Positions 34,812 through 62,642 of a stretch of DNA of 64,000 nucleotides are shown in pieces. The position numbers and the translations under genes are program-made. Numbering within the stretch: position 1 is the first letter of the stretch; each line of letters starts with the position of its first letter. Source of the DNA: an uncultured Oscillospiraceae bacterium (GTDB lineage Bacteria > Bacillota > Clostridia > Oscillospirales > Oscillospiraceae); assembly GCA_947630395.1 (NCBI GenBank), contig CANRHK010000001.1, positions 2,708-66,707 on the forward strand, read 5' to 3'. The notes beneath the pieces were generated by a model. That model saw nothing but the letters and a program-made list of their open reading frames with translations, did not search any database and had not been told where the DNA came from.

Positions 34812-35573
34812 CTACGGTACGGAAAGATCCGCGTCCGCATACCGATAGATCGTATATCCGTCCACATGATCGTACCTTTCATAGGAGCAGGCGGCCAGGC
34901 TGCCTGCTATCTTTTTGTCATCGGGCAGGATGATATAATGGCAGCCCCACTGTCTGGCAAGCGCCGTCAAAGCGGCGGCGTCGATCTCCTCCGCCTCCAT
35001 CTCCCCGTACAGCTCATTCCACACATTCCACCGATCCACCGTGATCTCTCTGCCGTAGGGCATACAGATGGTGCCGTCATACTGCCTTACATACTGCAAA
35101 AGCTCCTCCGGAAAGACCGCCATCACCTCTCTGCCTTCCACCCGTATGCTGTCGCAGATATCCACCACGCTCTGGGGCATGTGATACCAGTTTTCCGCCC
35201 GATGAAACAGAGGATTTTGATAGATGAAGCTTCCGGACACCAAAAGGATCACTGCCGCAGCTCCCGCAAAAAATAACTTCGCCCGCCCCTGCAGCTGCCC
35301 GTAGATCTTTGTCACCGCACAGGCGATGGTCACGGATACGGGCAGAAGCCAAAGGATGCGATAATAGATCTCCGTATCCGCCAGACGGAACACGATTCGG
35401 GCAATCAGCGGATTAAAAAAGAGCAAAAGCAGAATGACCGGCACATAGACAAACAGGATCCGGATATTTTTTCTCTTTTCCTCAAGCCACAAATAGACCA
35501 GGGAAAAAAAGTACCAGATCATTATCAGCCCATCCCCCATATAATTCTGAAACAAAGCGATCACATCCCGCAT
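34812..35573 (-). CDS. Membrane protein with soluble C-terminal domain; in frame with the upstream ORF across a single TGA
   Basis: Four to five TM helices followed by a soluble domain of about 130 aa. It has its own strong SD (AAAGGAGAG, 5 nt from ATG 35573). Confidence 0.6.
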   Translation of the reverse strand: MRDVIALFQNYMGDGLIMIWYFFSLVYLWLEEKRKNIRILFVYVPVILLLLFFNPLIARIVFRLADTEIYYRILWLLPVSVTIACAVTKIYGQLQGRAKLFFAGAAAVILLVSGSFIYQNPLFHRAENWYHMPQSVVDICDSIRVEGREVMAVFPEELLQYVRQYDGTICMPYGREITVDRWNVWNELYGEMEAEEIDAAALTALARQWGCHYIILPDDKKIAGSLAACSYERYDHVDGYTIYRYADADLSVP

Positions 35574-35597
35574 GGTTCTCTCCTTTCCCCCGATCCC

Positions 35598-36665
35598 TCA
35601 GGTCAGCAGCATGTACAGCGCCGTGCAGGCCGCGCACGGAACACAGCAGGCCGCCATCGGCAGCAAAAATTTCCACTGCCGGTAACAAACCGCGCCGCAG
35701 AGCGCGGCAATTCCCACAAGCATACAGCACAGCATGGATCCCATGGTGCTGCAGAGACAGCCGGACGTCATAGCCGACGCAAAGAGCACCCAGAAGCCGA
35801 TCGAAGCCTTGTGGCCGCTCTGCAGCCGTTCCAGCAGGACGAACAAAAGAAGAAACAGCACCGGTATGACGATGCTTCCCAGCGCCGCCTTCCCCTGGCG
35901 GCTCCTGGCGATCAAAAAATTCTCCACCGTATAGTGGGAGCTGTCTCCAAACAGCACCAAAAGCTCCGCGAACACCAGAAACAACGGCAGGCGTTCCCTG
36001 TTTCCGGCGCAGAGCTTCTGCCCCAACAGATAAAACGCCCCGTACGCCATAGCGATCATCGCGAGAGGAACCGCCACCTGGGCCACGCTCACGGAACGGA
36101 TCCCCGACATTCTGACAAGGAACGTGATCCAGACGGGAAACGGGGCCAGGCAATGCCTGAGATCCAGCTCGGAGGTATCTCCGGTGTAGGGCGACTTCCG
36201 GTACATGGTGCCGGCGTCGTCCGTGACGGTGGAGGTGGCCACATAAAAGGCATCGTCCGTGTCCGCGTAGGCCAGCCGCACCGCCTGCACCATCTGCAGG
36301 AGAAACAGCGCCCAGAACAGCGCCCACAAAAGCTTCGCGCCCCTGCCGCCCGCATCGGAGCGGTCCGAGACCACCCTGAGCGCTCCCCGACGCTTTCCGG
36401 CGAGCACCCAAAGGCGCGCCGCGGCCGCCGCCAGGCATACGCCCGTCGCAGCCAGATACACCCGCTGGAGCACCATATAATCCTTTTCCATCAGGATCAG
36501 GGGGACGCAGATCACCTGAAAGAGCGCCCAGAGGAAGATCTGCCCGCTTATCCAGGCAAAGGGAAGCCTGCCCGCCTTTTTATCCACCGCGCAAAACAGA
36601 CTGCCGACACCTGTCGGCACTGCCAGCAGCCAGACCGCCAGCAGAAAGCACTGTACTACTATCAT
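35598..36665 (-). CDS. Polytopic membrane protein, GT-C-like (acidic loop motif ADTDDAFYV)
   Basis: Ten or so TM helices. ATG 36665 overlaps the upstream stop as ATGA, with AAAGGAGAA upstream. The stop is TGA at 35600-35598. Confidence 0.6.
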   Translation of the reverse strand: MIVVQCFLLAVWLLAVPTGVGSLFCAVDKKAGRLPFAWISGQIFLWALFQVICVPLILMEKDYMVLQRVYLAATGVCLAAAAARLWVLAGKRRGALRVVSDRSDAGGRGAKLLWALFWALFLLQMVQAVRLAYADTDDAFYVATSTVTDDAGTMYRKSPYTGDTSELDLRHCLAPFPVWITFLVRMSGIRSVSVAQVAVPLAMIAMAYGAFYLLGQKLCAGNRERLPLFLVFAELLVLFGDSSHYTVENFLIARSRQGKAALGSIVIPVLFLLLFVLLERLQSGHKASIGFWVLFASAMTSGCLCSTMGSMLCCMLVGIAALCGAVCYRQWKFLLPMAACCVPCAACTALYMLLT

Positions 36666-38404
36666 AGGTTTTCTCCTTTTCCTTCTCGGATAAACAGGCC
36701 GACCCAATCGCCGTGGACGCCGGACTCGATCAGCCACTCCTCCAGGACAAGGCCGTATTCCTCCTCAAGCGCCTCGATGACGTCATCTTGGTCCACGCCG
36801 GTCTTAAGGATCACCACCGCCTCGTCCAGCGCCCGTATCGACTCCTTGTCCTCACGATTCAAAAGCTCGTCCCGGGTCAGCAGAAGCGTGCGCTCATATT
36901 CCGCAAACTCTAAAAGATTCTCATAGTACCCCACACCCGCGTAGACACAGATACAGCTCTCCTCCGCATAGGCCTCTGCCACCGCCCTCTGATCCAGATA
37001 GCCGGTGTAGAGATATTCTCCGTCATAAGCCCCAAGCCGCCCTATCTGCCAGACGACCAGGACGCCGCAGACTATAGTGCAGGAAAGCCTTGGCACCCCC
37101 AAAAAGCCAAGCAGCCAAAGCAGGCCAAACACCAGGCCGAACAGCACAAAGGGAAAGACCGGCATCATGTAGCGGTCCACCAGGTAAGGGGACATTTTGG
37201 CCGCCAGCAGGAAATACCCCGCCGCCGGCAGAATCAGCATCAATAGAAGCGCCCTTCCCTGTCTGCGCCGGACGCTCACCGCCAGACAGACGATCAAAAG
37301 CGCTGCGGCCAGGACAAGCCCCGCTCCGGACACCGTCCGGTCCGCCACCACCCCCCAAAAAGCGCCAAGCCTTGCCGCGTATTCCGCGGGCCCTCCCGCC
37401 AGATTCCGCAGCGCCTCCACCCCCCGGCTGCTTTGAAACACATCCGATATGGCAAAGGGGAATCCGACGACGCCGATGCACGCGGCAAACGCCAGGGAGC
37501 GCGCATATCCAAAAAGCTCCCGATATTTTCTGCGGGCCGCAAGAAGCGCGGCCGTCACAAGCGCAAGCACCAGGCAGTAGAACAGGAAAAAGTACTGCGT
37601 CCAGAACCCCAGCACGGTGACTAAGATCAACAGCCGATTGCCGCCCGCAAAGCCGTCCTCCGTCCATTTCCGCACATGCAGCGCAAACAGCGCCACACAG
37701 AAAAAAGTCACCAGCGCGTACATCCGCACCAGGAGGGTCGTCGCCATCGCCCCCGCCGAGAGACCGTAGGCCAGCGCGGCCATCACCCCCAGCAGACGTC
37801 CGGACACCCCAGACGCCGATGTCCCCCGCTCCAAAAACACCGCGCCAAACCGCTCCCCCGTCCTCATCAGCAGAAGCAGGATCCCCAGCACCGCCGCCAG
37901 ATTGATCACACAGCCCACAAAGGGGCTCACGCTTCCCGGAAACAGGGAGGACAGGGTGTGAAGGAGCATAAAGTGGAGCGGAGGATGGTTATCGTCCTTC
38001 ACGTTAAAGTACACGGACAGATAGTTGAAGGCGTCGTCTCTGTCCACCGTGATATACTTCTCAAAGGTCTGCCCCGCGATCCAGACGGGCTCCTCATAGA
38101 CGTCCGCCGTATAGGAAAGGAGCCTGCTGCCCCTCCCGTTCTTCAGCACATCCAGAAGCGTCTCCCTCAGGTTGGCCAGGGTCTCCCCAAGGGTCTCGCC
38201 GTCGATCTCGTTGTGCACAAACTTTGCAAGGCGGCCCTCCGGCTGCGTCGGGACGATCCATGGGTTAAACTCCGCATTGGCGAGCTCAAAGCTCAAAAGC
38301 TCGTCCATATGATACCCTTCCTTTTTGGCAATGCCCGCACACAGCAGCGCCGCGCACAGAAAAAGCACCGGCAGACGGGTCCGGATAAAGATATTCCAAT
38401 TCAT
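36662..38404 (-). CDS. GT-C fold glycosyltransferase, ArnT/PMT (GT39/GT83)-like
   Basis: A first-loop DE motif (GYHMDELLSFELAN), many TM helices and a soluble C-terminal domain of about 110 aa. ATG 38404 has GGAGGA upstream. Confidence 0.6.
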   Translation of the reverse strand: MNWNIFIRTRLPVLFLCAALLCAGIAKKEGYHMDELLSFELANAEFNPWIVPTQPEGRLAKFVHNEIDGETLGETLANLRETLLDVLKNGRGSRLLSYTADVYEEPVWIAGQTFEKYITVDRDDAFNYLSVYFNVKDDNHPPLHFMLLHTLSSLFPGSVSPFVGCVINLAAVLGILLLLMRTGERFGAVFLERGTSASGVSGRLLGVMAALAYGLSAGAMATTLLVRMYALVTFFCVALFALHVRKWTEDGFAGGNRLLILVTVLGFWTQYFFLFYCLVLALVTAALLAARRKYRELFGYARSLAFAACIGVVGFPFAISDVFQSSRGVEALRNLAGGPAEYAARLGAFWGVVADRTVSGAGLVLAAALLIVCLAVSVRRRQGRALLLMLILPAAGYFLLAAKMSPYLVDRYMMPVFPFVLFGLVFGLLWLLGFLGVPRLSCTIVCGVLVVWQIGRLGAYDGEYLYTGYLDQRAVAEAYAEESCICVYAGVGYYENLLEFAEYERTLLLTRDELLNREDKESIRALDEAVVILKTGVDQDDVIEALEEEYGLVLEEWLIESGVHGDWVGLFIREGKGENL

Positions 38405-38470: not shown

Positions 38471-40264
38471 TCAGTCGGGCTCCACGCGGTACACATAGAT
38501 TTGATAGTAGCTCTCCTCTGTGGAAAAGGGCTCCTCCCGCATCAGCACAAGACCCTGTTGTTCGGCGTTCAGGATGTAGGCGGCGGAAAAGAGATATCTT
38601 CCGCCCATCTCCCACAGCGCCTCCGCGTCCAGCCGGTAATCCAGAAAGGCAAAGCCGCCCTTTTCTATGGTGTAATAGCCGGGGCACTCCGAGCTGAACA
38701 GATAACAGCGGTTGCCCCACTTGTCAAAATTATCCGCCAGATAATCGCTGCGCTCCAGCTCCGGCGAAAGGATCCGGCGAAAGGCGTGCTTGTATTTTAA
38801 CGGGTAATTGTTGGAGTAGCCGTCCAGCGTATAGAAGCCGTGGTAGAGCGCCGCGGCCGGATCGATCCCCAGGCTGACCACCCGATAGTCCTCCTTCTCC
38901 TCTCCGGTCCGCTCCCGCAAAAACTCCTCCACCTGGGAGTAGACTCCCACGGCGTAGTAGTCGTTAAAGCTGATGGCCCCGTAATCGGGATTGCGAAGCC
39001 GCTGGACATTCCATTTAAAGTTGCTCTCCAAAAGCACCTTTCCCCCCGTGCCGCACAGCGCCGCCGCCATCACCAGACCCAAAAGCGCCGCCGGCGCCCG
39101 CAGTCTGCCTCCGGATTCCCAAAGCTCCCACACAAGCGCCAGCCCACAGGCCAGGATCAGATACCAAAGACAGGGGGCCAGCCAAAGGAGACGGTCCATC
39201 TGAAAGGCGCCAAACGCCTGAAACCGCTCTCTCAGCCGGATGCACCCCTCCGTGTTCCAGAGGGCTGCCGCCGCGGCCAGAAAAAGATTGCATCCCAGGG
39301 CGACAGCCATCGCCCTAAGATCCCGCTTCAAAGCCTCCTCGCACCGGCCGCTGGAAGCGCCTCTCCCCGCCCGGGTCCCAAGCGCCCAACCGCACACCGC
39401 CGCCAAGAGGACCGGCAACAGAAACAATACATGAAAGTCTCCGCTGTGTTGCCCTCCCTGTAAAAACCCCTGCCAGAGGGCGGGGGCAAACGCCTCCGGA
39501 TACATCGCATACTCGGACTTATGGGAGACGACAGCTCCTGCAGCGCCCAGGCCCAAAAGCTCCGCAAACAGCCGCAGATTTTCAAGCACATAGATCCCCA
39601 GCATCACCAGAAAGCACCACAGCAGGCGGCGCCGGAAAAAAGGCGTCCCTCTGCCCCGTCTGCCCCTCCAAAGCTCCCACAGCATCCACAAAAGAAGCGC
39701 TCCCAGGACGCCGAATCCCACCAGCACCAGCGAGGAATTAAGGGCAAAAAACGCCGCGTAGGCAAGACAAAGCCTCGTATGCCTCCCCTCCTTCGCCTCC
39801 AAAAGCAGATAGAGAAGCAGGGGCAGGCCGTACTGAGCCAGGCCGTATACCGGAAGAAAGGGAAGGTACGCGTACAGGACGCCGACCGCTGCGGCGATCA
39901 ACGGCCTCCCCGTCACTCTGCGGGCCAAAAGCGCCATACCCACATAGCCGCACAGGCTTTCCGACACCTGCAGAAAGGCCAGGGCGCCAAAGGCGTTTCC
40001 CGAAAGGAACAACAGCACCGCCGCCGGCGCGGGGGGCGTCAGCGCCGTCTTGGACACCCCGCCCAGAAATTCCGGCAGCGTGCTCCCCTGAAAAAGATGC
40101 TTCGCCTGGAGCAGATAGGCGATCAGCTCGCCGTCCAGCTGGTCGTGGTAGGTCACAATGGCGTCCTGTCCCAGGATCAGATAGGGGATCCCCATTGCAA
40201 ACACCGCCAGAAAGCCGGCGATCCAGAAGAAGGTATGCAGTTGAAAGCGCCTCCGATCGCCCAT
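38471..40264 (-). CDS. Polytopic membrane protein, paralog of 55974-57758 (possibly the family databases call DUF6044; unverified)
   Basis: It shares the blocks YHDQLDGELIAYLL / TDQLDGEVINYIY and ALTPPAP / AMTPPAP. It also shares the C-terminal GIDPAAALYHGFYTLDGYSNNYPL / GVNPAAALYNGFYCLDGYSNYYSL and WGNRCYL. The start is ATG 40264 or 40273. Confidence 0.6.
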   Translation of the reverse strand: MGDRRRFQLHTFFWIAGFLAVFAMGIPYLILGQDAIVTYHDQLDGELIAYLLQAKHLFQGSTLPEFLGGVSKTALTPPAPAAVLLFLSGNAFGALAFLQVSESLCGYVGMALLARRVTGRPLIAAAVGVLYAYLPFLPVYGLAQYGLPLLLYLLLEAKEGRHTRLCLAYAAFFALNSSLVLVGFGVLGALLLWMLWELWRGRRGRGTPFFRRRLLWCFLVMLGIYVLENLRLFAELLGLGAAGAVVSHKSEYAMYPEAFAPALWQGFLQGGQHSGDFHVLFLLPVLLAAVCGWALGTRAGRGASSGRCEEALKRDLRAMAVALGCNLFLAAAAALWNTEGCIRLRERFQAFGAFQMDRLLWLAPCLWYLILACGLALVWELWESGGRLRAPAALLGLVMAAALCGTGGKVLLESNFKWNVQRLRNPDYGAISFNDYYAVGVYSQVEEFLRERTGEEKEDYRVVSLGIDPAAALYHGFYTLDGYSNNYPLKYKHAFRRILSPELERSDYLADNFDKWGNRCYLFSSECPGYYTIEKGGFAFLDYRLDAEALWEMGGRYLFSAAYILNAEQQGLVLMREEPFSTEESYYQIYVYRVEPD

Positions 40265-40265
40265 G

Positions 40266-41672
40266 TCACTCATTCCTCCACACGGCGGCCCGCACGCCGG
40301 CCGTCGAAGCCCAGGCCGTCCACAGACAGCCGATCACGATGGTCTTTTTATAGTCAAACATCCCGCCGCCGCGCATGGTGTACCAGATCGTCATACCGAC
40401 GCCGGTCAGAAGCAGGATCCCCCAGAAAAAAGCCTTCCTCCCAAACAGCGTCCCTCCGCGCTCCCCCCGCAGGCGGCCAAGGGCCCTGAGCCAGAAGAGC
40501 GCCTGCAGCGCAGCGGCCATAACCAGCGCCAGCCCAAACCACCATCCGCTGTAGTGAAAGTAGCGGCTGGCAAGCGCCGGCGTGCGGTTCATCATCAGAT
40601 CGTAATTGCGGGTGGTGTAGGAGTCGTACCCTCTTCCCCTTAACAGAAGCACCGATATGGGAGGCGAGAACACATACCCCGCCGCATCCCACGCCATCTC
40701 GTGAAGGATCCGATCCCGATAACGGGAGTAAGAAAGCCGCGCCACCTGTCCAAACAGCTCCTCTGCGCGCTCCGCGCCGTAACTCTCCTCCACGGCTCTC
40801 CCCGCCACCCGAAGCATATTGTCCGCGTAGAAAAAGGTCTCCCTCACCTGATCCGGATCCAGGCACTGCCGTACCTCCTGGGGCCAGTCCTCGTAGGTTT
40901 TGTCCGCGGTGGACCAGGAAAACCGGCTAAACAGCGCTGCGTTCAGACTTAAAGTGCCTCTCCCACAGGCGTCCTTTGTCTGGGTCAGATCGTTCATTCC
41001 CAAGATGATCCCCGCAAAGGACACCACGATGATCAGATGGTTCGCAATCTGGGTCGGCTTTTTGGGGGAAAAGCAGACGAGCCCGTACAGAAAGACGAGC
41101 GCCACCGGCACCGCCCCCAGATACAGATACTCCGGCTGCAACAGCGCGCCCACCAGCCAAAAGACCGCGATCCGCGCCAGATCCATACTTCGGATCTCCT
41201 TCCCGCCCTTCAGCGCCGCCCAGGTCCAGGCCAACTCCAAGAGCATCATGGAGCCGGTCAGGGATTCCGGCAAAACCGCCAGATGGCACTGCATCGCCAT
41301 AGGAAACGTAAGCATCGCCAGACTGCCCCACAGATTGGCGGGCCGCCCCGAGGGGTACACCGCCTGCAAAAAGGCGTGGGCCGCGTAGAGGGCGACCGCA
41401 AGCTGCAGGGCATACATCACACAGTGGCAGGAAACTCCAAAAAGCCCCTCTATCCCTCTGGCAAACAGCAGAAGGACCGGATACAGGATCCCCACGTTCG
41501 GGTCGCACAAAAAATCCTTGCTGACCTGCTCATAAAGGTACGTGTCGCCAAATTTCTGAAAACCGGCAAAATTGCAGAGCATCCAGAATAGTCCCAGGAC
41601 TATCTGGATGCTGAAACCAATCATGCACATCCTGCCGGTCACGGCGGCAGCCGCCTTTACAACTCTCCGCAT
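40266..41672 (-). CDS. Polytopic membrane protein of unknown family
   Basis: 468 aa with about ten TM helices. ATG 41672 has AGGGAGAAG upstream. The 5' 110 codons of the track ORF overlap wecE out of frame and are rejected. Confidence 0.55.
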   Translation of the reverse strand: MRRVVKAAAAVTGRMCMIGFSIQIVLGLFWMLCNFAGFQKFGDTYLYEQVSKDFLCDPNVGILYPVLLLFARGIEGLFGVSCHCVMYALQLAVALYAAHAFLQAVYPSGRPANLWGSLAMLTFPMAMQCHLAVLPESLTGSMMLLELAWTWAALKGGKEIRSMDLARIAVFWLVGALLQPEYLYLGAVPVALVFLYGLVCFSPKKPTQIANHLIIVVSFAGIILGMNDLTQTKDACGRGTLSLNAALFSRFSWSTADKTYEDWPQEVRQCLDPDQVRETFFYADNMLRVAGRAVEESYGAERAEELFGQVARLSYSRYRDRILHEMAWDAAGYVFSPPISVLLLRGRGYDSYTTRNYDLMMNRTPALASRYFHYSGWWFGLALVMAAALQALFWLRALGRLRGERGGTLFGRKAFFWGILLLTGVGMTIWYTMRGGGMFDYKKTIVIGCLWTAWASTAGVRAAVWRNE

Positions 41673-42859: not shown

Positions 42860-42861
42860 CC

Positions 42862-43815
42862 TCATTTCCTCCAGATTCCCTTCGCCGTCTCCGGCACATT
42901 CTCCGTTGTCCTGCTGATAATATATTTGGGACGTCCCTTGACCTCCTCATAGATCCTGGCGATATAGTGGCCGATGATCCCCAGGCTCACCATCAAAAAG
43001 CCCCCGATGATCAAGAGCAGAAGGATCACCGTGGTAAACCCTTCCACCGCCGTGCCGGTGACGTAGCGCACCAGCGTCTGCACCGCGAGGATCGCGCTGA
43101 AGATCAGGGAGATCATCCCCATCACCGTCACCGCCTGCAGCGGCAGCGTGCTGAAGGAGGTGGCGTTGGTGACCGCGTATCTCATCAGGCTGAAAAACGA
43201 CCACTTGCTCTCTCCAAACTGCCGTTCCTGCACCTCGTACTCCACCCGCTCCGTGCGAAAGCCCGCCCAGAAGGTCAGCGCCCGAAAGAAGGTGTTTCGC
43301 TCGGGAAGCTCCAGCAATACCTTCACCACCTTGCGGTCCAGAAGCTTAAAATCCGAGGTGGAGCTCATGTCCATCCGGATCAGCCTGCTCATGATCTTAT
43401 AGAACAATCCGGCGGAAAGCCTGTAAAAAATGCTCTCCCTGCCGCGGTTTTTCTTGATCCCCTCCACAATTTCCGCGCCCTCCTGCCAGAGCTTCCACAT
43501 CTGAGGAATGGTCTCCGGCGGGTGCTGCAGATCACAGTCCATGACGATCACCGCGTCGCCGGCGGCCAGCTCCAGCCCGGCGAAGATAGCGGCCTCCTTG
43601 CCGAAATTGCGGGAAAACTCCGCGCCCTTGACACGGGGATCCCGGGCCGCCGCCCTCTGGATCTCCTGAAAGGTGCCGTCCACCGAGCCGTCGCTGATAA
43701 ATACCAGCTCGTAGTCGATCCCGTGGCGATTCAAAAGCTCCGACAGCACCCTTGCCGTATTCTCAATATTCTGTTCCTCGTTGTACGCCGGCAAAACCAC
43801 CGATAACAGCGCCAT
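42862..43815 (-). CDS. Polyprenyl-phosphate glycosyltransferase, GtrB/ArnC/DPM1-like GT2
   Basis: The GT-A N-terminus (LSVVLPAYNEEQNIENT...LVFISDGSVDGT...VMDCDLQHPP) is followed by two C-terminal TM helices. Its stop overlaps the wecE start region. Confidence 0.82.
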   Translation of the reverse strand: MALLSVVLPAYNEEQNIENTARVLSELLNRHGIDYELVFISDGSVDGTFQEIQRAAARDPRVKGAEFSRNFGKEAAIFAGLELAAGDAVIVMDCDLQHPPETIPQMWKLWQEGAEIVEGIKKNRGRESIFYRLSAGLFYKIMSRLIRMDMSSTSDFKLLDRKVVKVLLELPERNTFFRALTFWAGFRTERVEYEVQERQFGESKWSFFSLMRYAVTNATSFSTLPLQAVTVMGMISLIFSAILAVQTLVRYVTGTAVEGFTTVILLLLIIGGFLMVSLGIIGHYIARIYEEVKGRPKYIISRTTENVPETAKGIWRK

Positions 43816-46296: not shown

Positions 46297-46357
46297 GCCT
46301 TCTCCATGCCTTGTGCTTCTCAAAACTCGGCTCGCCGCCCGACCCGTCCGCCGGCTC

Positions 46358-51171: not shown

Positions 51172-51215
51172 TCTGTCTTCTCCGTTTCCCGCTGTCACTC
51201 AGACTGTTTTTCAGA

Positions 51216-54764: not shown

Positions 54765-55853
54765 CTATATCTGCTCGTTCTGACGATGGATCAGGGGATC
54801 CTCATAGGCATCCATAAAGTCCTCGCCCAGCCTGACCGTCTCGTCGGCAAACCGGATCGCCTTGATCTCTGTCAGCACCGCCACCACCTTGCGGAAACGA
54901 AGCCCCGGAAAAAAGTTCAGCATCTCCATGGGCACGGTGGCGTCAAACTGCGGATACTCCGGAAAAAGCGCCCGATAATCCAGCTCATCCCTGGGATGAG
55001 GCTTCAAAAAGATGGTCCCCTCCGGCTCGTACATCCGGATGATGTCGCGGAAGATCCGCTCTCTCACCTCCAGGCTGCAGAGGGGATCGGTCAAAATCAG
55101 GATCTTGTCGCCCACCCTGCCGCTCTCCGCGATCTGCCTCTCCAGGCCCTCCTTATCGCGGATAAACGCCTGCAGAATCAGCTCCTTGTCCTCAGCGGTC
55201 AGCCGGTCCGTCAGCGCCTGCCTCGGCTCGTCGATATATTTCGGACAGGGATACCGGATCAGGGAGCTGTCGTTTACCTCCATGTCCAGACAGTATTTGC
55301 CGTAGCCGTTCTGTACAAAGATCAGATTGAGCCTCTGGGAGAGAAACGCCTTCAGCCCAAAATGCCCTCGGTTGTCGTATCGGGCCGCGTCGAAGTTTTT
55401 CAAGCAGTTTAGCCCGTCCTCCAGCGCGTGGTAGGGAATTTTATATTGATTCAGATAATAGCCGATGGGGTCGGAGTCGCAGTAGACATACACGTCCTGA
55501 TAGGCCCGAAAATCCACGGGAACATAGGCGGACTCCAGCCTCGCGTACTCCCTGGTAAACCGGATGCGGTGAAGGAGATTTCCCAGGAAATTTCCGGTAT
55601 CTTTTCGCCATCTGGCAAGCTCCGGAAAAAAATCCTCCCTCTTTTCGTCAAATTCAATGACCTCCTCAAAAAGTCCCGTGGTCTCCACCCGCGCCTTCAG
55701 ATTTTCAAAATCGGTGGACATTTTGGACAGCACAAGGGTGGCTCCTCCAAAATCCCTTCCCTCATTTCGGCACTGCTCTCTGCGCTTGAGCTCCTTTAAA
55801 AAGGTCACATACACATGGTAATAGGTATGGCATACATAGATTCTGTCCTTCAT
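54765..55853 (-). CDS. GT52-like glycosyltransferase with sialyltransferase motifs (candidate nonulosonic acid transferase)
   Basis: It carries a D/E-D/E-G motif (HALEDGLN) and an HP motif (FLKPHPRDE). These occur in the same order as I recall for Neisseria Lst (FDDGTGN ... APHPRQ), and LILTDPL parallels ILLGSPD. It is 362 aa. Confidence 0.55.
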   Translation of the reverse strand: MKDRIYVCHTYYHVYVTFLKELKRREQCRNEGRDFGGATLVLSKMSTDFENLKARVETTGLFEEVIEFDEKREDFFPELARWRKDTGNFLGNLLHRIRFTREYARLESAYVPVDFRAYQDVYVYCDSDPIGYYLNQYKIPYHALEDGLNCLKNFDAARYDNRGHFGLKAFLSQRLNLIFVQNGYGKYCLDMEVNDSSLIRYPCPKYIDEPRQALTDRLTAEDKELILQAFIRDKEGLERQIAESGRVGDKILILTDPLCSLEVRERIFRDIIRMYEPEGTIFLKPHPRDELDYRALFPEYPQFDATVPMEMLNFFPGLRFRKVVAVLTEIKAIRFADETVRLGEDFMDAYEDPLIHRQNEQI

Positions 55854-55973: not shown

Positions 55974-57758
55974 CTAGGGTTCCAGGCGATAGAGCCAGAT
56001 CGCGTAATAGCTGTCTTCGGTCTCAAAGGGCTCCTCCCGTGCCGGCACCAGGTGCATCTCTTGCGCGTTGTCGATGGGCATAGCCGCAAAAAGATAGCGC
56101 GCGCCCATTTCATAGGCTTTCTCCGTATTGAGAGAAAGATCGTGGTACGAGGCGTTCACATCGCGCCCCACGGTCATATAGTTGCCGGTCTCGGCATTCA
56201 ACAGATAACAGCGGTTGCCCCAGGTGTCAAAGTAGATCCTGCTCTCCTCCGATTTGGCCAGCTCGTCCGCGATGATCTCCCGAAACCGATGCTTGTAATC
56301 CAGGGAATAATAATTGGAATAGCCGTCCAGACAGTAGAACCCATTGTAGAGGGCCGCCGCCGGATTGACGCCGAGGCTCAGGGTCCGGTAGGAAGCCTTA
56401 TCCTCGCCGATAAAACGGTCGATCTGCCGGTACACATCCTCCGCGTAGTAATCGTCCCAGTCCATCAGACGGTAGGTGTCCGGAAAGAGCATCAGCCGCA
56501 GGTTATGGTAGAGAGTGCTGTTTTCGTAGATGCGGGGCAGCAGGGCGAGCACGACGGCCAGCGCCAGAAGGCACCGGACGGGCCGATCTCTCTTCCACCC
56601 TCGAAACAAAAACCTAAGATCCAGCGCCAGAAGGGTATACCAGCACAGCGGCAGAAGCCAGTAGATCCGGTCCGCCTGAAAGTATTTGACCGTTCCCCCG
56701 ATTCGGGTCCGCAGGCCGATCACCCACGGCGTCCTCCACAGAACCGCTCCGAGGGCAAGCAGGATCGCCAGCGCAAAGATCCCTCCGATCCGCCGATACA
56801 GGCGGGCGCTCTCTTTTTCCCGCTCATCGTCCTCCCTCCGTCCCCGGGTCAGAAAACGGCCGATCGGCCAGGCCGCGAGAAGGACTGCCGTAAGCGCCGC
56901 GATCGGCGCGTTATAGGCCTTTCCGTAGGCGCCGCCCGACAGAAAGATCTCCGCAAAGTACTCCACTGGGTTCGGCATCGCGGCCAGGACCATCTCCTCC
57001 CTGTGGGGCACGAAGGAGGCCCCGCCCAGAAGCTGGACCGCCAGATCTTTGTTGCAGGCCAGAAAGACCGCCGTCAGCAATAAAAAGGCCAGTCCCGTCT
57101 CCCTGTAACCCCCTCTGCGCCTGAGAAGCGTCACGGCCCAGACGATCCCAAGGACCGCCACCCAGGCAAACCCCACCAGCGCCAAAGACGAGCTCACCGC
57201 GTACAGCACAATACAGAGATAGTATTTCCATTTTGCACAAAAGGGGATCTGCCTTTCACAGATGCCGAGCATAGCCCAAACCAGAAGGGGCTGCCCCAAA
57301 ACGGACAGACCATACACCGGATAAAAGGGCAGACAGACAAAAAGCCCCGACGCCGCCAGGGCGGCAAGCGGCGAGGCCGTGAGTCTTTTACAGAGCAGAT
57401 ACATCCCCACATAGCCCACCGCCAGGACAAAGATATGAAAGGCCGCAAAGGCGGCAAAGGGCGGCAGGAACCGGTAAAAGAGCACCCCGACCGGCGCGGG
57501 CGGCGTCATAGCGCTCTTGCTCATGCCGTTCATAAACTCCGGAATGACGTCCTCTCCGGAGAAAAGATACCTCGCCCGATAGATATAGTTGATCACTTCC
57601 CCGTCCAGCTGGTCCGTGATCTGTACATAGGCTCCGCTTCCCAGCACAAAATAGGGAAGCGAAAGAAGAAACACCACGCAGAGCCCCGCCCCGAAGCAAA
57701 GACCTTCCAGGGCCTTAGGATGTCCTGTCACAAATTTTCCGATCGTCTCTCTCTCCAT
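55974..57758 (-). CDS. Polytopic membrane protein, paralog of 38471-40264
   Basis: See the shared sequence blocks listed for 38471-40264. ATG 57758 has GAGGAGAGAGGG upstream. Confidence 0.6.
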   Translation of the reverse strand: MERETIGKFVTGHPKALEGLCFGAGLCVVFLLSLPYFVLGSGAYVQITDQLDGEVINYIYRARYLFSGEDVIPEFMNGMSKSAMTPPAPVGVLFYRFLPPFAAFAAFHIFVLAVGYVGMYLLCKRLTASPLAALAASGLFVCLPFYPVYGLSVLGQPLLVWAMLGICERQIPFCAKWKYYLCIVLYAVSSSLALVGFAWVAVLGIVWAVTLLRRRGGYRETGLAFLLLTAVFLACNKDLAVQLLGGASFVPHREEMVLAAMPNPVEYFAEIFLSGGAYGKAYNAPIAALTAVLLAAWPIGRFLTRGRREDDEREKESARLYRRIGGIFALAILLALGAVLWRTPWVIGLRTRIGGTVKYFQADRIYWLLPLCWYTLLALDLRFLFRGWKRDRPVRCLLALAVVLALLPRIYENSTLYHNLRLMLFPDTYRLMDWDDYYAEDVYRQIDRFIGEDKASYRTLSLGVNPAAALYNGFYCLDGYSNYYSLDYKHRFREIIADELAKSEESRIYFDTWGNRCYLLNAETGNYMTVGRDVNASYHDLSLNTEKAYEMGARYLFAAMPIDNAQEMHLVPAREEPFETEDSYYAIWLYRLEP

Positions 57759-57768: not shown

Positions 57769-59480
57769 TCACCGACGGATCTCAAACCGGTATACCGTGT
57801 ACGTGCCGCCGTGCGACGCCGTGATTTCGTCCGCCGCCTGCGCCCTACTGCCGCAGGCTTCCTCCAAAAACTTCACAGACGGGTGGCTGCTCTCATTTCC
57901 ATCCCGATAGAGAATCAGATACAGCTCCTCTGCACCTTCCAGATATTCCGCCAGCTTGGCACGCATGGAAGGGCTGTTGGAATACCAACAGCCGGAGACA
58001 ACGCTGTTTCTCGGCTGTGCAAGCCTTGCGTCCAGCGCGCTGCCCGTATAGTAGCCGGCCGACACCGACTCCATAAGATAGCGGTTTTCCGGACGGCACC
58101 GACAGTATTCCTGTATCTCGTACATCCCCTCCATAAAGGCAAGCTTTCCCCTGTTTTGTTCCGCCGTGTAATAGTATTGCCGCTTTCCGGACTGATACGC
58201 CGTGACACAGACCGCCGCACAGCAGACAAGAAGCAACGCCCGCTGACGCCATAGTCCCACCTTATCACATTCTATCCAAAGAAGCGCAAGCGCCAGGGCG
58301 ATCTCGCAGAGAAACAACGGATGCGTCACTCGGTGCGGGTAACGCCCCTGCCAGATCAGATATCCCCAGACCGCCGTCCTGGCAGCCGCCACTCCCAATA
58401 TCGGCAGCAGCATGACAAAGCGCCGCCGAAGCAGAACCCACAAAAGCAGGACCGCCCACAGGCTGACCGCCAGATGATTGACCTGCCAGTAGCCGTCCCC
58501 AAAGTAATCCTGCCACGTCATCCGCAGGACCTCCCACAACGAGGGATGCACCTCCCCGTGCTCTCTCGCATAAGCGACAAGCTCCTCCCCGCACTCCACA
58601 GAGATCTCCCAATCCAGGATCGTGCCGTTACAAAACGCCTGATACTGCGCCTCCGTCACCTGAAAACGGTCCAGGATATCGCGAACCTCCTCATACGCCG
58701 GCTTTCCGTATATATCGTACAGCTCCGCGCGCACTCGGTTGAACCGCTGATATTCCCTCCACGTCTCCCCCCGATAGGCAAGTCCGTCCCCCAGCGCCGC
58801 CAGAAGAAAAACCGCAAAAAGCACCGCCGGAATCAGACAAAACGCTCTGCAGCGCCTTTTCAGATCCCCTTCCCTCCATGCTCCCTGTTTTCCCAAAAAG
58901 AGCCCCAGGCATACCGCAAGCCCGAAGGGCTGTATCATCCACATGGAATCCTGCCGCAGGCAGACGCTCAGAAATTCCAGGAGAAAGAAAAGGAAAAGTC
59001 CTTTTTTGCCGGATCGGTTCAAAATAAGGCAGACGTATCCGGCAATCGCAAGCAGAGCCGCCGTGGAGGTGAATTGTATCTGGGCCAGGGAATATATACC
59101 CCCCCTGTCAAAAGCACAATGCCGCCTGCGGTCACCGCCAGGTATTGCGCCGGCCTTTCGCAGCGGGAATAGCCCGCATCCAGCATCGCGCCGTAGGACA
59201 GTACCTGGAGGCACACAAGCGCGCCGCCGTACCACGGCACCGCGGCTGTCAGACGATAAAGCGCGGAGAGCGGCAGCGCCAGCAGATAATTGATGAAAAC
59301 CGCGTGGGCGTCCGGTTTTGCGGAGAGCACGCCCGACAGGATCTCTGCCAAAAAACGGTCATCGTTGGTCTCAAAACAGATGCCGGCCTTCTGATACACA
59401 CAAAACACATAGCCGAGGGCGATTCCGATCCCCAGCGAAAGGCGCGCGATATCTCGATACAGCCCTTTTTTTGTCATCAT
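57769..59480 (-). pseudogene. Polytopic membrane protein gene interrupted by a frameshift at a G7 tract (possibly phase-variable)
   Basis: ORF 59480-59019 reads as TM-like sequence up to ...AVTAGGIVLLTGG, then becomes R/P-rich. ORF 59235-57769 is R-rich before the tract and TM-like after it (IYSLAQIQFTSTAALLAIAGYV...). The switch is at C7 on the plus strand, 59099-59105. Eight or five G would fuse the frames. Confidence 0.7.
59099..59105 (-). repeat. Homopolymeric G7 (C7 on plus strand) at the frameshift point
   Basis: Read directly: aatatatacc|ccccctgtca. Confidence 0.95.
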
Positions 59481-59519: not shown

Positions 59520-61193
59520 TTAAAAGTGTACAATGATATACTCCCCCACATCGACAATCGACCCCTCCCTCGGAAAACGGGGCCACTCCGCAGACAGACG
59601 CTCCGCCTCCGCATAATCCGCGTTCTGAAGCGGGAGGATTTCCTGCCCGTGCATAGCAAAAAAGCGCACCAGCTCCGTATCGTCCCCAAAGGCGTAACGG
59701 CCCCAGTCAATGACGGACAGAGCCGGTGTCTGCGCCACCCACACGCCGTAGGGGCGGTAAAATTTTTCCAGAAGATGCTCGTCTATGCGGGTGGTGATAC
59801 GGCTGATCTGGTAGAAGGTCTTTGAGTTATAGGGCACATAGGCGGCCCCGATGATCCCCGCAGGCACCTCGTAGGAGCCGGTGAACACCACCGGTTTCCC
59901 CGTGTCAAAATCCCGCTCCAGCTCATAGGCGACCCGCGAAGCCACATTCTTGGCCTCCTCGTATTTCAGATAGTCCACATAGAACCAGCGGTTCATATCG
60001 CTGCACTGGTTCCACACCACCGCGGTCAGCGCGAACACCAAAAGTCCCACAAGCAGCCTCCTGCCCCTCTGCGGAAGCCATCGCCCCCGCACGGCGCCGT
60101 TTACCGCATACACCGCCAGGAGCGCACCGTACCCGCAGATCACGGGCAAAAACTGCGCCGAACGGTACAGGGTCGCGCTCCCCTCGACAAAAATCAAAAG
60201 AAAGGACGCTACAAAGCTCCCCAGGGTCAGAAGAAGGATCCACGGATCCCGCTGCCGTATCGTCCGCCAGAGTCCAAAGCAGAAGATCACGGCCGCCGCC
60301 CACACGAAAATCCGTATGGGATAATAGGCGTAGGCGAAGACCCCGTACATGACAAACATCCTCTTGAGCACCATCGCAAACTCCGGACCGGCATTCTCCG
60401 CAAAGATCCAGGACACCATCTCCGTGACAGACCGCCGGACCGCCTCGTCCTGCAGCTCCTCCAGACCGAAGATGCGGATGACGGCAACGATCATCACACT
60501 CCGAAGCACGATGCCCGCGGCCGCCACCGCCACTGCCGCCAGCGCGCCGCGAAACAGCCTGCGCCTCTCGCCTGCAAAGCGTTCCGTGAGAAACATCAGA
60601 CAGACGCCCAAGAGCCATACGATCATCAGGGACTCATAACAGCCGACGGCAGCCCAAAGTCCGGCCGCCGACCCGAGAAAGGGCAGAAGGCACCCTCCGG
60701 CCTCCCTGCGCTCCAGGCGAAGCCGCGCCTCCCGAAAACAGCACAGGCTGACGCCGCAGAACAGATAGCCCATGGATATGCCGTTGTGCAGATAATAAGT
60801 GTACACCTCGCTGATCAGCGGCGAGGATAAAAACACCGCGCCAAAAAAAAGATATCCGTACCACGGGAGGCTGTCCTCCAGTATGGAGTACAAAAGAACG
60901 CACCATACCGTGACCGCCGCCATCAGGATCAGGACGCCCGCCAGATCCGTCAAAAACGGCGCAAATTCCGCAATGTGCACCACCTTATTCAGCAGATACA
61001 GCACCCACCTGCCCACGATCGCCGCCAGGCCGTCCTCAAAGTAATAGAGATACGGCGTATCGTCGATCCCGACCGTGGCGTGCGTCACCAGAAAGCCGTA
61101 GCTGCCCAGTGCCACGAGCCCCAGCGCCAGAAGATAAGCCCGGTTCCCTATGAATTTCCTACCGTAATTCAGCCATTTTCCCATGCCAAACAT
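59520..61193 (-). CDS. Polytopic membrane glycosyltransferase, GtrC/GtrII-like (tentative), second copy
   Basis: The first-loop motif THATVGIDDTPYLYYFEDGLAAIVGRWV parallels NHDGL...SGRWF in 43839-45413. It has about 12 TM helices and a soluble C-terminal domain. Confidence 0.5.
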   Translation of the reverse strand: MFGMGKWLNYGRKFIGNRAYLLALGLVALGSYGFLVTHATVGIDDTPYLYYFEDGLAAIVGRWVLYLLNKVVHIAEFAPFLTDLAGVLILMAAVTVWCVLLYSILEDSLPWYGYLFFGAVFLSSPLISEVYTYYLHNGISMGYLFCGVSLCCFREARLRLERREAGGCLLPFLGSAAGLWAAVGCYESLMIVWLLGVCLMFLTERFAGERRRLFRGALAAVAVAAAGIVLRSVMIVAVIRIFGLEELQDEAVRRSVTEMVSWIFAENAGPEFAMVLKRMFVMYGVFAYAYYPIRIFVWAAAVIFCFGLWRTIRQRDPWILLLTLGSFVASFLLIFVEGSATLYRSAQFLPVICGYGALLAVYAVNGAVRGRWLPQRGRRLLVGLLVFALTAVVWNQCSDMNRWFYVDYLKYEEAKNVASRVAYELERDFDTGKPVVFTGSYEVPAGIIGAAYVPYNSKTFYQISRITTRIDEHLLEKFYRPYGVWVAQTPALSVIDWGRYAFGDDTELVRFFAMHGQEILPLQNADYAEAERLSAEWPRFPREGSIVDVGEYIIVHF

Positions 61194-61202
61194 TCCCTTC
61201 CG

Positions 61203-62642
61203 TCAGGAGGCGGTCAGCCGAAAGATCACAAAGTCGTAATACATATAATGAAAGCGTAAGACCTCCTCATAGGTGTACCATTCCGCCATAGAATCCGGCC
61301 GGTCCCCCGCAAAGGCCACATACCAAATATTTCCCGTCACATCCTCGAGCTGGCTTAGGTCCGTGAGGGCATCCGTGTTGGAGAAGGGCAGACTGTACAG
61401 CTTATAACCGCACAGATAATATTGAAGCTCCGGATGATATACATTCAAAAAAATCGTGTGGGTATAAGGCCCGATCATCACATCGTTCTCCGTCACCTGC
61501 TCCTCCCAGAACCGCTCGTACACATCCAGACCCCTGTCGTACTCCAGGCGGATCTCGCTGCCATACTGGAGCAAAAAACAGACTGCCATCCCCGCAACGA
61601 CCAGAGCTCCTGCCCATTTTCTGCGGATTTGGTCAAAGCCCACCGCGTAGAAAAGCATCAGAAATCCGAAGCCCGGGAACACATAGCGGCCCATGAAGCA
61701 GTTGTTGACACAGGCGGAGATCACTCCCCCCGCAAGCACCGTCAACCCCAGAGCTCCCATGCCAACCGCCGGAGCAAACTCCCTGTGCTCCCGCATCCAG
61801 TCCACCGCCAGATAACACAGGATCAGGCACAGCCCCATCCCCAGTATCACCACCGGCCCGATGGGCGTCTCCACCGCGGAAAACCACTCCTTACAGTAGT
61901 CCATCAGGGAATACAGATCCGCCAGCTCGGCGGTGGAGCCTGCGTCGTAGCGCATCCTCAGAACCATCTGCCTGCAGGTCACCAGAAGCCACGGGGAGAA
62001 CACAAACGCCACCGTTCCTCCGCACACAAAGAAGGGCTTCACCAGCCGTCTCCTTTTGGTGATAAGGATGGCCCCCAAAAAGAGCAGATAAAAGAAAAAC
62101 GTCTGGATCATAGCAAACGTATGACAGTACACCGTACAGATGCTGGACAAGCAGAACACGACCCATTTCCTCCGCGAGGGGCTTCGATAGAGATCACAGG
62201 CGCTCAGTCCCGCAAGTGTCAGGAAAAAAAGCGCGGCCGCATACATGCGCACATTCCCCGCCTGCACGCTCATGATCGGCATGAGGATGGAAAACAGCAT
62301 AAAATAGATCGATATCCGCAGGCCGAAAAGCTTTCTCACATAGTACTTGCCCAGCAGAAGGTAGCCCTCCATGAACAGGACCGACATCAGCTTCAGGCTG
62401 AAGAACCGTTTCCCGCCGCCAAACAGCATAAAGAACAGCTTCAGCAGAATATAGTAAAAAGGGGAATGATCGTCCGACGCCGTGATATAGAACAGCCTGG
62501 TCCAGGACTGCGACACCATGGAGGCGGAATACGCCTCATCATACCAGAGATTATTGGTGACGCAGAACGCTCCCCACACCAAAAGCCCTGCGACCGGCAG
62601 AGCGTGCCACAGCCGGCCCCATCCTTTCTTTTCTTCGTCCAT
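61203..62642 (-). CDS. GT-C fold glycosyltransferase, PMT_2/ArnT-like
   Basis: It has the motif NNLWYDEAYSASMV, a DE motif in the first loop, and many TM helices. The preferred ATG is 62642 with GGGAGGG 9 nt upstream; the alternative is 62675. Confidence 0.6.
   Translation of the reverse strand: MDEEKKGWGRLWHALPVAGLLVWGAFCVTNNLWYDEAYSASMVSQSWTRLFYITASDDHSPFYYILLKLFFMLFGGGKRFFSLKLMSVLFMEGYLLLGKYYVRKLFGLRISIYFMLFSILMPIMSVQAGNVRMYAAALFFLTLAGLSACDLYRSPSRRKWVVFCLSSICTVYCHTFAMIQTFFFYLLFLGAILITKRRRLVKPFFVCGGTVAFVFSPWLLVTCRQMVLRMRYDAGSTAELADLYSLMDYCKEWFSAVETPIGPVVILGMGLCLILCYLAVDWMREHREFAPAVGMGALGLTVLAGGVISACVNNCFMGRYVFPGFGFLMLFYAVGFDQIRRKWAGALVVAGMAVCFLLQYGSEIRLEYDRGLDVYERFWEEQVTENDVMIGPYTHTIFLNVYHPELQYYLCGYKLYSLPFSNTDALTDLSQLEDVTGNIWYVAFAGDRPDSMAEWYTYEEVLRFHYMYYDFVIFRLTAS

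Follow-up and report, generated by a model that had tools for sequence, protein, structure and literature searches.

The window, the whole 64,000-nucleotide stretch of DNA analyzed here, contains a run of approximately 28 kb (34812-62642) in which ten large polytopic membrane protein genes occupy nine loci, labeled A to I, all on the minus strand. The coordinates given for the nine loci in the initial annotation of this stretch match independent NCBI gene calls in 9/9 cases, and the loci are minus-strand and polytopic throughout. NCBI records exact translations with the same start and stop sites (355 plus 253, 580, 597, 468, 524, 594, 557 and 479 aa). Thirteen open reading frames in the window have at least five predicted transmembrane (TM) segments, and ten of them fall within 34.8-62.7 kb. 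A Kyte-Doolittle scan, which is crude and gives a lower bound, places 8-9 TM segments in A_N, B, C, E, F, G, H and I, while the AlphaFold models of D and of one G homologue have approximately 11-12 membrane helices each. In the hydropathy scan the N-termini are rich in Lys and Arg, which suggests an N-in orientation.

Two array members belong to a named family. E (43839..45413, 524 aa) and H (59520..61193, 557 aa) are members of the GtrII family (PF14264), with scores of 158 and 92 bits against a cutoff of 30, and their matches cover almost the entire model. Because both exceed the threshold of this Pfam family, Glucos_trans_II, which HHpred ties to the GT-C/PMT clan (PMC7801869), we count E and H as GT-C-type by homology. 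In an alignment of 22 E/H sequences, D45 of the GIDDTP motif is invariant. It is this pair that can be named with confidence, and not, as had been suggested, the two proteins with a DE motif: I has no Pfam match and B falls below the gathering score.

For D and G the assignment comes from predicted structures. D (40266..41672, 468 aa) has no Pfam match when its own sequence is searched. Among its 53 homologues, 18 match DUF2142 (PF09913, best 6.7e-7) and eight match Glyco_transf_22 (PF03901, best 4.5e-5), suggesting a distant relationship to DUF2142/GT22; D57 is conserved in at least 90% of these sequences. The AlphaFold model of D (pLDDT 91) gave high-probability Foldseek matches exclusively to GT-C proteins (STT3, ArnT, AglB, Pmt4, EmbB and ALG9/3), with transporters appearing at probabilities below 0.3. 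G (57769..59480) is a frameshifted member of a family without a Pfam model, whose intact homologues have 550-620 residues. Its FETNDD motif follows TM1, with F29, N32 and D33 invariant and E30, T31 and D34 at least 90% conserved in 50 sequences. The model of a G homologue (pLDDT 92.6) matched DPY19, ArnT, AftA, PglB, EmbC, AftD and Pmt4 at a probability of approximately 1. With both models, only GT-C entries reached probabilities of 0.8-1.0, at modest TM-scores of 0.29-0.48, and confident PDB matches were limited to STT3, ArnT, PglB, DPY19, Emb/Aft and PMT proteins. The models and searches together predict a GT-C fold for both families. None of the nine loci was assigned to a transporter family; placement of most of them in transporter or other non-glycosyltransferase families was what the initial annotation had named as evidence against its reading.

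The frameshift previously noted in G is real. The reading frame breaks in a G7 homopolymer (59099..59105, minus strand; C7 on the plus strand), would be regained by G5 or G8 instead of G7, and is broken in the same way in a second assembly.

I and B resemble the PMT_2 family more faintly. I (61203..62642, 479 aa) is a candidate PMT_2/ArnT-like GT-C on the basis of its alignment and of Pfam matches among its homologues. I itself has no match in a Pfam search, PMT_2 included, and three of 35 homologues match PMT_2 (best 2.9e-6). The LWYDEA motif after TM1 is invariant in 35/35 sequences. I is the most conserved member of the array, with 60-77% identity across the clade, and its homologues are also found alone, outside glycan loci. 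B (36662..38404, 580 aa) has a first loop of 138 residues and a GYHMDELLSF motif that is invariant in 5/5 sequences. Its sole Pfam match is to TMEM260-like proteins at 0.0047, below the gathering score, with none to PMT_2; alignment with the I profile using hhalign gave a probability of 46% (E 2e-4). These sequence comparisons weakly support PMT_2-like enzymes in both cases.

The remaining three loci encode proteins of DUF families. F (55974..57758, 594 aa) and C (38471..40264, 597 aa), which are 37% identical, match DUF6044 (PF19510) with 398 and 375 bits, both above the gathering threshold. DUF6044 comprises 2,266 representative clusters at 50% identity. In an alignment of 52 sequences D41 is invariant and D44 at least 90% conserved; the invariant Asp lies approximately 10 residues past an N-in TM1, and after it come an amphipathic stretch and, at the C-terminus, a conserved soluble domain of approximately 185 residues. 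The locus at 34812-36665 had been described as one split gene, but it contains two. A_N (35598..36665) encodes a 355-aa DUF6077 protein with nine predicted TM segments that exceeds the gathering threshold of PF19554 (320 bits, model positions 1-353 of 354). A_C (34812..35573) is a separate gene for a 253-aa protein with 3-4 TM segments and a soluble domain of approximately 135 residues. A Shine-Dalgarno site of its own precedes it, four relatives keep the pair as two genes, and A_C comes after the DUF6077 gene in the window and in 4/5 related loci. A_C is a possible second subunit alongside the DUF6077 protein.

Searches for C and F (52-sequence profile) and for A_N (5-sequence profile) gave no link to GT-C families at the level of sequence, profile, Pfam or PDB, consistent with C, F and the A_N/A_C pair being wall-biogenesis membrane proteins of another kind, such as polymerases or ligases, flippases, or acyl- or phospho-group transferases, that share with GT-Cs only their many TM segments. 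The DUF6077 motif, YADTDDAFY, follows predicted TM4 instead of TM1, and polytopic Acyl_transf_3 and MBOAT proteins are encoded in related loci. We nevertheless consider such a function rather doubtful. The Asp after TM1, the amphipathic stretch and the C-terminal domain give DUF6044 the layout of a GT-C, one of the 52 DUF6044 members matches GT-C_AftD at 6e-4, and A_N and A_C together (nine plus four TM segments and a soluble domain) sum to the 13-TM plan of PglB and ArnT. Both DUF families also share an operon with proven GT-C genes. We treat C, F and A_N as putative GT-Cs.

The description of all nine proteins as GT-C-like thus stands for E, H, D and the G family and weakly for I and B, but for C, F and A the searches gave no GT-C link. 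An acidic motif just after TM1, proposed for most members, is borne out by alignment: directly after TM1 an Asp or Glu is found in all or at least 90% of the sequences of each family (I, G, C/F, E/H, B and D), and A_N is the exception. The C-terminal soluble domain likewise proposed for most is conserved in DUF6044, but the soluble part of D is internal. Taken together, most of the run appears to encode GT-C-type, outside-acting transferases of unrelated and partly undescribed families, within one cell-wall glycan operon.

Upstream on the same strand lies backbone machinery (13216..30570) that includes GT2s, a methyltransferase-domain protein, a GH25 lysozyme, an LCP ligase (14299-15450), a WbaP-type priming transferase (Bac_transf, 15477-16973), a Wzt-like ATPase (25678-27111, match 1e-80), a polytopic ABC-2/Wzm-like candidate assigned by hydropathy and position (27131-28120), and RmlB (29548-30570, match 1e-116). 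Within the array, a GT2 protein with two C-terminal TM helices (42862..43815, minus strand) is a polyprenyl-phosphate sugar synthase by homology. It matches GtrB sll0501 (5EKP, 2e-69) and ArnC structures (1e-43) over its full length, in agreement with the single GtrB/ArnC-like synthase reported beside the array. Its gene overlaps by 4 nt that of a WecE-type dTDP-4-amino-4,6-dideoxyhexose transaminase (41726..42865, minus strand; NF008687, 625 bits against a cutoff of 375). We also considered PseC for this transaminase and rejected it, as the PseC model scores 184 bits against a cutoff of 423. No N-acetyl- or formyltransferase gene adjoins the WecE/GtrB pair. A search of small TM open reading frames and MOP-like genes recognized no GtrA- or Wzx-type flippase in the window; this is not decisive, because the flippase gene is unlinked in several known transmembrane glycosylation systems (PMC8035078). 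The lone small open reading frame with at least three TM segments (plus strand, 226-597) is apparently spurious.

A membrane-anchored GDSL/SGNH hydrolase or acyl-esterase (45445..46323) adjoins a block of pseudaminic acid genes (46358..52004), all on the minus strand. PseG (46358-47416), PseI (47613-48677) and PseF (51216-52004) score above their equivalog cutoffs and PseH (48692-49237) just below (91.3 against 93.1). The block also contains a 72-aa acyl carrier protein (49287-49505) and an FkbH-domain protein (49516-51198). No PseB was recognized in the window. At its 5' end the array is bounded by a divergent DegT-family aminotransferase on the plus strand (62812..64000), PseC-like by inspection, and one relative (L004) carries a DegT-like gene at the corresponding position, also on the opposite strand. 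Between the Pse block and F, on the minus strand, are genes for a soluble GT2 glycosyltransferase (51950..52996), a half-size ABC exporter (52993..54741) and a sialyltransferase-type GT52-like soluble protein without TM segments (54765..55853; PF07922, 1e-9). The best named match of the exporter, at 353 bits and below the equivalog cutoff, is PglK, which is a lipid-linked-oligosaccharide flippase. The GT52-like gene beside the exporter gene is conserved in relatives, and its product is likely a cytoplasmic pseudaminic acid transferase. Entry of pseudaminic acid is most likely through this enzyme and the PglK-like flippase, and the Pse pathway, although present as first described, is therefore a neighbor of the GT-Cs and not their donor source; the transaminase at GtrB is WecE-type.

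Comparison with Acetatifactor/Waltera relatives separates constant from variable parts. The order E-GtrB-WecE-D is constant in five related loci, so that E always adjoins the GtrB-like gene. H comes after I in every relative examined, and the I-H pair occurs in 28 loci. G, F, B and C are gained and lost between relatives in a cassette-like manner, as had been suspected for strains, C for instance being missing from L080 and L084. The concentration of such genes is unusual against characterized systems but ordinary within the Acetatifactor/Waltera clade, where 3-10 polytopic open reading frames (median 6) occur per 21 kb.

We propose that the array carries out multi-component transmembrane glycosylation of a wall glycopolymer, and would form the variable half of the locus for that polymer in an Acetatifactor-like Lachnospiraceae bacterium. 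The backbone would be built in the cytoplasm by the WbaP-type primer and GT2 enzymes, exported by the Wzm/Wzt-type ABC transporter and attached to peptidoglycan by the LCP enzyme. RmlB and the WecE-type transaminase would provide a dTDP-4-amino-4,6-dideoxyhexose, and the translationally coupled GtrB/ArnC-like GT2 would transfer this amino sugar, or a derivative, to undecaprenyl phosphate. After being turned over by an unlinked flippase, the lipid-linked sugar would be added to the polymer by GT-C enzymes using the acidic residue of their first outside loop. Since the synthase gene lies between those of E and D in every relative, these two are the best candidates for using its product. A second module (I, H, the GT52-like protein, the PglK-like ABC exporter, GT2 and the Pse genes) would make and export a unit containing pseudaminic acid. 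G, F, B and C would act as interchangeable cassettes through which the surface glycan comes to differ from strain to strain, and G would be switched off in this genome by its frameshift. We give these steps jointly a probability of roughly 0.65; the donor sugar, the acceptor and the order of action are inferred. A single synthase for nine candidate GT-Cs, far from the 1:1 relationship of characterized systems, argues against this explanation. Also counting against it are the lack of a GtrA- or Wzx-type flippase in the window and of an N-acetyl- or formyltransferase beside WecE/GtrB, the missing GT-C link of C, F and A_N, the modest TM-scores of D and G, and the sub-cutoff PglK-like match.

Some or all of the GT-Cs might instead O-glycosylate extracytoplasmic proteins, with wall proteins or membrane-anchored proteins as targets, modified in regions rich in Ser/Thr. 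Streptococcal PgfS/PgfM1 and the eukaryotic PMT/TMEM260 enzymes act in this way, and the mechanism is documented (PMC12041528). PgfS is the best named NCBIfam match of the synthase, although its 281 bits are well under the cutoff of 500, and the lone Pfam hint for B is to protein O-mannosyltransferases. A housekeeping protein-modifying enzyme would also fit I, given its PMT_2 likeness, far higher conservation and solitary homologues. However, the locus also encodes an LCP ligase, a Wzm/Wzt-type exporter, RmlB and GH25 wall hydrolases, and no obvious substrate protein was found. We regard protein O-glycosylation as unlikely.

One operon with a single synthase and many GT-Cs would also fit an extracytoplasmic assembly line, in which the GT-Cs together make an entire glycan domain out of one or two lipid-phosphate sugars instead of adding single-sugar decorations. 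In mycobacteria the Emb/Aft enzymes work in such a manner, making arabinan with decaprenyl-phosphate-arabinose as the donor. The G-family model matches AftA, AftD and EmbC, the D model matches EmbB, and large polytopic arrays are general in the clade, but these structural matches reflect the GT-C fold generally and not Emb/Aft specifically. The differences in membership between close relatives are more easily reconciled with optional decorations, and G is frameshifted in two assemblies; an assembly line thus seems quite improbable. We retain decoration of a wall glycopolymer as our explanation.

A more far-reaching and rather speculative reading is that gut Lachnospiraceae (Acetatifactor/Waltera) carry a chromosomal GT-C cassette array in which at least seven unrelated families, three of them without a Pfam model, are shuffled around two fixed modules. 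DUF6077 and its 253-aa partner (9+4 TM) would possibly be a naturally split enzyme, the donor would be an undecaprenyl-phosphate 4-amino-6-deoxyhexose, undescribed in Firmicutes, and single cassettes could be switched through homopolymer slippage. If true, the array would be a hypervariable surface-glycan code. In abundant gut Firmicutes, surface glycans shape both susceptibility to phages and recognition by the immune system and are almost uncharacterized, and their diversity may owe much to outside-acting GT-Cs that family databases miss; the D and G families have a predicted GT-C fold and no usable Pfam model. The locus provides testable candidates for new glycosyltransferase families, a split GT-C and a new lipid-linked amino-sugar donor.

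Several known systems resemble parts of the array. In the Campylobacter Pgl system (PglK and PglB), the likeness is to the PglK-like ABC exporter and cytoplasmic GTs conserved beside I and H; however, the PglK match is under its cutoff, and I and H resemble users of monosaccharide-phosphate lipids (PMT_2, GtrII) and not STT3/PglB. The mycobacterial and corynebacterial Emb/Aft/Mpt enzymes are likewise many GT-Cs on one lipid-phosphate donor, and the array models match EmbB/C, AftA and AftD structurally, but there is no sequence relationship and the array members are dispensable and variable. The ArnB-ArnC-ArnT pathway for lipid A aminoarabinose also places a DegT-family aminotransferase beside an ArnC-type Und-P transferase followed by a GT-C, and ArnT ranks with the best structural matches for both D and G. 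The transaminase of the array is WecE-type, acting on a dTDP-hexose and not UDP-Ara4N, formyltransferase and deformylase genes are absent from the array, and its acceptor is not lipid A, because the host is Gram-positive. The serotype-converting GtrA-GtrB-Gtr(type) cassettes of Shigella and Salmonella share with it the GtrII family (E, H), a close GtrB homologue and the proposed role in variable glycan decoration, but they are prophage-borne, whereas the array is chromosomal, in an operon, without GtrA and with several non-Gtr families.

The closest precedent is found in Gram-positive wall polymers: CsbB/GtcA/YfhO, GtlA/GtlB, CsdAB/CD/EF of L. lactis, and GacI-L (PMC8035078, PMC9574508). These systems also use a membrane GtrB-type GT-A to make C55-P-sugar and a polytopic GT-C with an acidic outside loop to transfer the sugar to the wall polymer after export, the GT-C sequences are so divergent that several are without a Pfam domain, and the flippase is often unlinked. 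They form 1:1 pairs, whereas here a single synthase is accompanied by as many as nine candidate GT-Cs, which belong to seven or more unrelated families, this synthase is coupled to a 4-amino-6-deoxyhexose transaminase, and the cassettes are species-variable. The mechanism is of a known kind, while the number and variety of enzymes are unusual; because the general mechanism is established in lactococci, listeriae and streptococci, the array extends known biology and does not overturn it.

Positions 34812-62642 form a single array in which all genes are co-directional on the minus strand. The array is bounded at its lower end by a convergent GDSL gene (34809/34812) and at its upper end by a divergent DegT-type gene (62642/62812), with a promoter-like site at 62725-62698. 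The positive AT skew of the plus strand coincides exactly with the array genes, as expected when T-rich genes for membrane proteins lie on the minus strand. The initial annotation placed nine polytopic membrane protein loci here, labelled A to I from 34.8 kb upward, and its starts and stops all give proteins that are recorded residue for residue on one 66,755-bp NCBI contig (355, 253, 580, 597, 468, 524, 594, 557 and 479 aa, in order from A_N and A_C, the two genes of locus A, to I and without G). A simple hydropathy scan found 8-9 TM segments in most loci, in agreement with their description as polytopic. Thirteen ORFs with at least five TM segments lie in the 64 kb window, and the ten within the array are the nine loci and an ABC exporter. 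Pairwise comparison of the nine revealed clear paralogy only between C (38471-40264) and F (55974-57758), at 37% identity, and a faint similarity between B (36662-38404) and I (61203-62642); the remaining pairs are unrelated in sequence.

All nine proteins had been proposed to be GT-C-like. This proposal stands for E, H, D and G, is tentatively favoured for I and B, and for C, F and A_N would follow from layout and context. None of the nine was placed in a transporter family, and a search of NCBIfam found no model for any of them. E (43839-45413) and H (59520-61193) match the Pfam family Glucos_trans_II at 158 and 92 bits, respectively (cutoff 30), and HHpred ties this family to the GT-C/PMT clan (PMC7801869). 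Predicted structures cover D and one G homologue. D (40266-41672), which like I has no Pfam match, was modelled with AlphaFold from a 53-sequence alignment (pLDDT 91). In a Foldseek search of the PDB with this model the high-probability matches were all GT-C enzymes (STT3, ArnT, AglB, Pmt4, EmbB, ALG9 and ALG3), and transporters appeared at probabilities below 0.3. Among the D homologues, 18 of 53 touch DUF2142 and 8 of 53 Glyco_transf_22. The soluble C-terminal domain expected of most of these proteins is not seen in D, where the AlphaFold model places the extramembrane part internally.

G (57769-59480) has no Pfam match in the window, and its homologues, which are intact and 550-620 aa long, have no consistent one. 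The model of a 44%-identical homologue (pLDDT 92.6) matches DPY19, ArnT, AftA, PglB, EmbC, AftD and Pmt4 at a probability of ~1, with TM-scores up to 0.48. The family carries an FETNDD motif, located between TM1 and the first juxtamembrane helix, in which F, N and the first D are invariant and the other residues are at least 90% conserved. As the initial annotation noted, G is frameshifted: it consists of two ORFs in different frames, and the break falls inside a G7 run at 59099-59105; the 64 kb contain just one other G/C run of seven or more. An assembly error is countered by an ENA contig from a second assembly (2x coverage) that is identical over 1.88 kb, G7 included, although its reads may not be independent. 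Because the homologues have no homopolymer at this site and are one residue shorter, the ancestral state, judged by sequence comparison, was probably G5. The frameshift could be fixed, leaving a pseudogene, or could act as an on/off switch prone to slippage.

I is strikingly conserved (60-77% identity), and 3 of 35 homologues reach PMT_2 (best 2.9e-6). B has a TMEM260-like match in Pfam that falls below threshold (0.0047). Its alignment with the I profile (263 columns, hhalign probability 46%, E 2e-4) was the sole signal among the profile-profile comparisons. PDB searches with the D, I, B, DUF6044 and DUF6077 profiles and with the single A_C sequence returned only noise. For I and B in particular, a rival to the decoration of a wall polymer is that they O-glycosylate proteins, like the streptococcal Pgf system (PMC12041528).

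C and F belong to DUF6044, a Pfam family in which an Asp following TM1 is invariant and the soluble C-terminal domain is strongly conserved. Profile, Pfam and PDB comparisons revealed no link from DUF6044 to any GT-C family or solved structure; a single sequence of 52 touches GT-C_AftD, which is too weak to count. A genome scan with C alone found no relative. The same comparisons found no GT-C family or solved structure for DUF6077, the family of A_N, and neither family produced a signal in profile-profile comparison with D, G, I or GtrII. Our literature search on DUF6044, DUF6077, PF19510 and PF19554 found nothing. Both families may have a GT-C role, as their layout and context suggest, or a non-glycosyltransferase role, as the lack of a family link would allow.

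Locus A, described as one split gene at 34812-36665, is instead two genes, A_N (35598-36665), which covers the whole DUF6077 model, and A_C (34812-35573), which is preceded by an AAGGAG site and starts 24 nt past the stop codon of A_N. A pair of 355 and ~253 aa also occurs in three loci from related genomes (L001 15027-16892, L080 7944-9842 and L083 15190-17076). DUF6077 is present in four related loci: these three, with A_C, and L084, which has an insertion sequence in its place. A metagenome scan with DUF6077 returned three loci only. A_N and A_C are in frame with each other in the window, L001 and L080, but two additional stop codons in the L001 spacer exclude stop-codon read-through and make the shared frame coincidental; every A_C also has its own ribosome-binding site. 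The acidic motif YADTDDAFY, previously placed after the first TM helix, follows the fourth predicted helix of A_N. With 9 TM helices in the DUF6077 protein and 3-4 plus a soluble domain in A_C, the pair resembles the 13-TM-plus-domain plan of PglB and ArnT (as 9 + 4), and by this analogy suggests a split, two-subunit enzyme. One published speculation is that small GT-Cs could depend on a second protein to bind the acceptor (PMC8035078).

The reported GtrB/ArnC-like synthase (42862-43815) was confirmed as a full-length homologue of GtrB (5EKP, 2e-69) and ArnC (1e-43), a GT2 with two C-terminal TM helices. It is overlapped by 4 nt by a gene for a WecE-type dTDP-4-amino-4,6-dideoxyhexose transaminase (the pair spans 41726-43815). 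NCBIfam scores rule out that this DegT-family gene is PseC (184 bits against a cutoff of 423, compared with 625 against 375 for WecE). The pairing resembles ArnB/ArnC, an analogy that suggests an undecaprenyl-phosphate amino-deoxyhexose donor, and the transaminase can draw its substrate from RmlB (29548-30570). A Pse pathway does lie nearby, with PseG, PseI and PseF over their cutoffs and PseH borderline. Embedded in the Pse operon are genes for an FkbH-domain protein and a 72-aa acyl carrier protein (49287-51198), which hints at an unusual N-acyl (e.g. glyceroyl) pseudaminic acid derivative; the arrangement is kept in L001, L083 and L084. The interval from the Pse genes to F encodes a soluble GT2, an ABC exporter that among named families matches PglK best, and a GT52-like protein, also soluble. 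The latter two (52993-55853) are kept together beside I-H in many genomes.

Upstream genes encode a WbaP-type primer, an LCP ligase, several GT2s, a methyltransferase-domain protein, two GH25 lysozymes and a Wzt-like ATPase (1e-80), beside which a polytopic protein is read, by hydropathy only, as a Wzm-type permease. No GtrA- or Wzx-like flippase was found within the 64 kb window. At 23539-27111 the Wzt-like ATPase, which has a C-terminal extension of ~190 aa, adjoins a 706-aa protein whose N-terminal domain is of the methyltransferase type, recalling the control of chain termination by WbdD/Wzt in ABC-exported polysaccharides. One GH25 gene (30705-33425) contains, at 32830-33313, highly acidic N-terminal tandem repeats rich in E, S, Y and G ahead of a TM helix (periods 144 and 171 nt, ~2 copies, 91% matches).

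Scanning with the I profile recovered 76 loci, nearly all from Acetatifactor, Waltera and unnamed Lachnospiraceae. In most of them I-H is followed by GT52-like, ABC and GT2 genes, and the interval from H to the GT52-like gene may or may not contain G, F and B (IH in 14 of 28 loci, IHGF in 7, IHF in 5, IHB and IHC in 1 each). Five related loci all keep E-GtrB-WecE-D and A_N but differ in C and B: the order after D is D-C-B-A in the window, L001 and L083, D-B-A in L080, and D-A followed by an IS605-type insertion in L084. Across relatives, G, F, B and C come and go like cassettes. The L084 element (12659-14429; resolvase-like and OrfB/TnpB) directly follows DUF6077, at the place of A_C, where the glycan locus also ends. 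Genes of the I family are also found in loci that have neither H nor the Pse module (L008, L009, L014, L016, L017, L023, L028 and others), often beside ABC transporter genes; this occurrence and the conservation of I suggest that its function is core, not variable. Related loci also encode DUF6020, PMT_2, Acyl_transf_3, MBOAT and several unclassified polytopic proteins. Additional polytopic proteins in L004-L072 (e.g. L072, L066, L038 and L033) fall into at least 33 sequence clusters, many without a Pfam match.

From these gene structures, assignments and synteny we infer a donor, an acceptor and a division of labour. RmlB and WecE would produce dTDP-4-amino-6-deoxyhexose, and the coupled GtrB/ArnC-like enzyme would transfer the sugar to undecaprenyl phosphate, ArnB/ArnC being the closest analogy. 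An unlinked flippase would expose the lipid-linked sugar, and GT-C enzymes would place it on an exported wall polymer; among these, E and D, being fixed beside the synthase, are the most likely to use it. A rival to such decoration is an extracytoplasmic assembly line of the Emb/Aft kind. Pseudaminic acid is CMP-activated. In the decoration scheme it most likely enters in the cytoplasm via the GT52-like enzyme, and the PglK-like exporter may then flip the resulting lipid-linked unit. I and H are fixed beside this module, and G, F, B and C are optional cassettes.

The concentration of such genes had been called unusual. It is far denser than in any characterised system, but it is typical of the clade, as related loci have a median of 6 large polytopic non-ABC ORFs per 21 kb (range 3-10). 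By comparison, three GT-A/GT-C pairs are scattered through the genome in B. subtilis and L. lactis (PMC8035078). Systems of this kind are already known. New here are the count of candidate GT-Cs per synthase, the GT-C folds modelled for families D and G, which lack a usable Pfam model, the conserved DUF6077/partner gene pair resembling a split 13-TM GT-C, and the coupling of WecE to a GtrB-like synthase.
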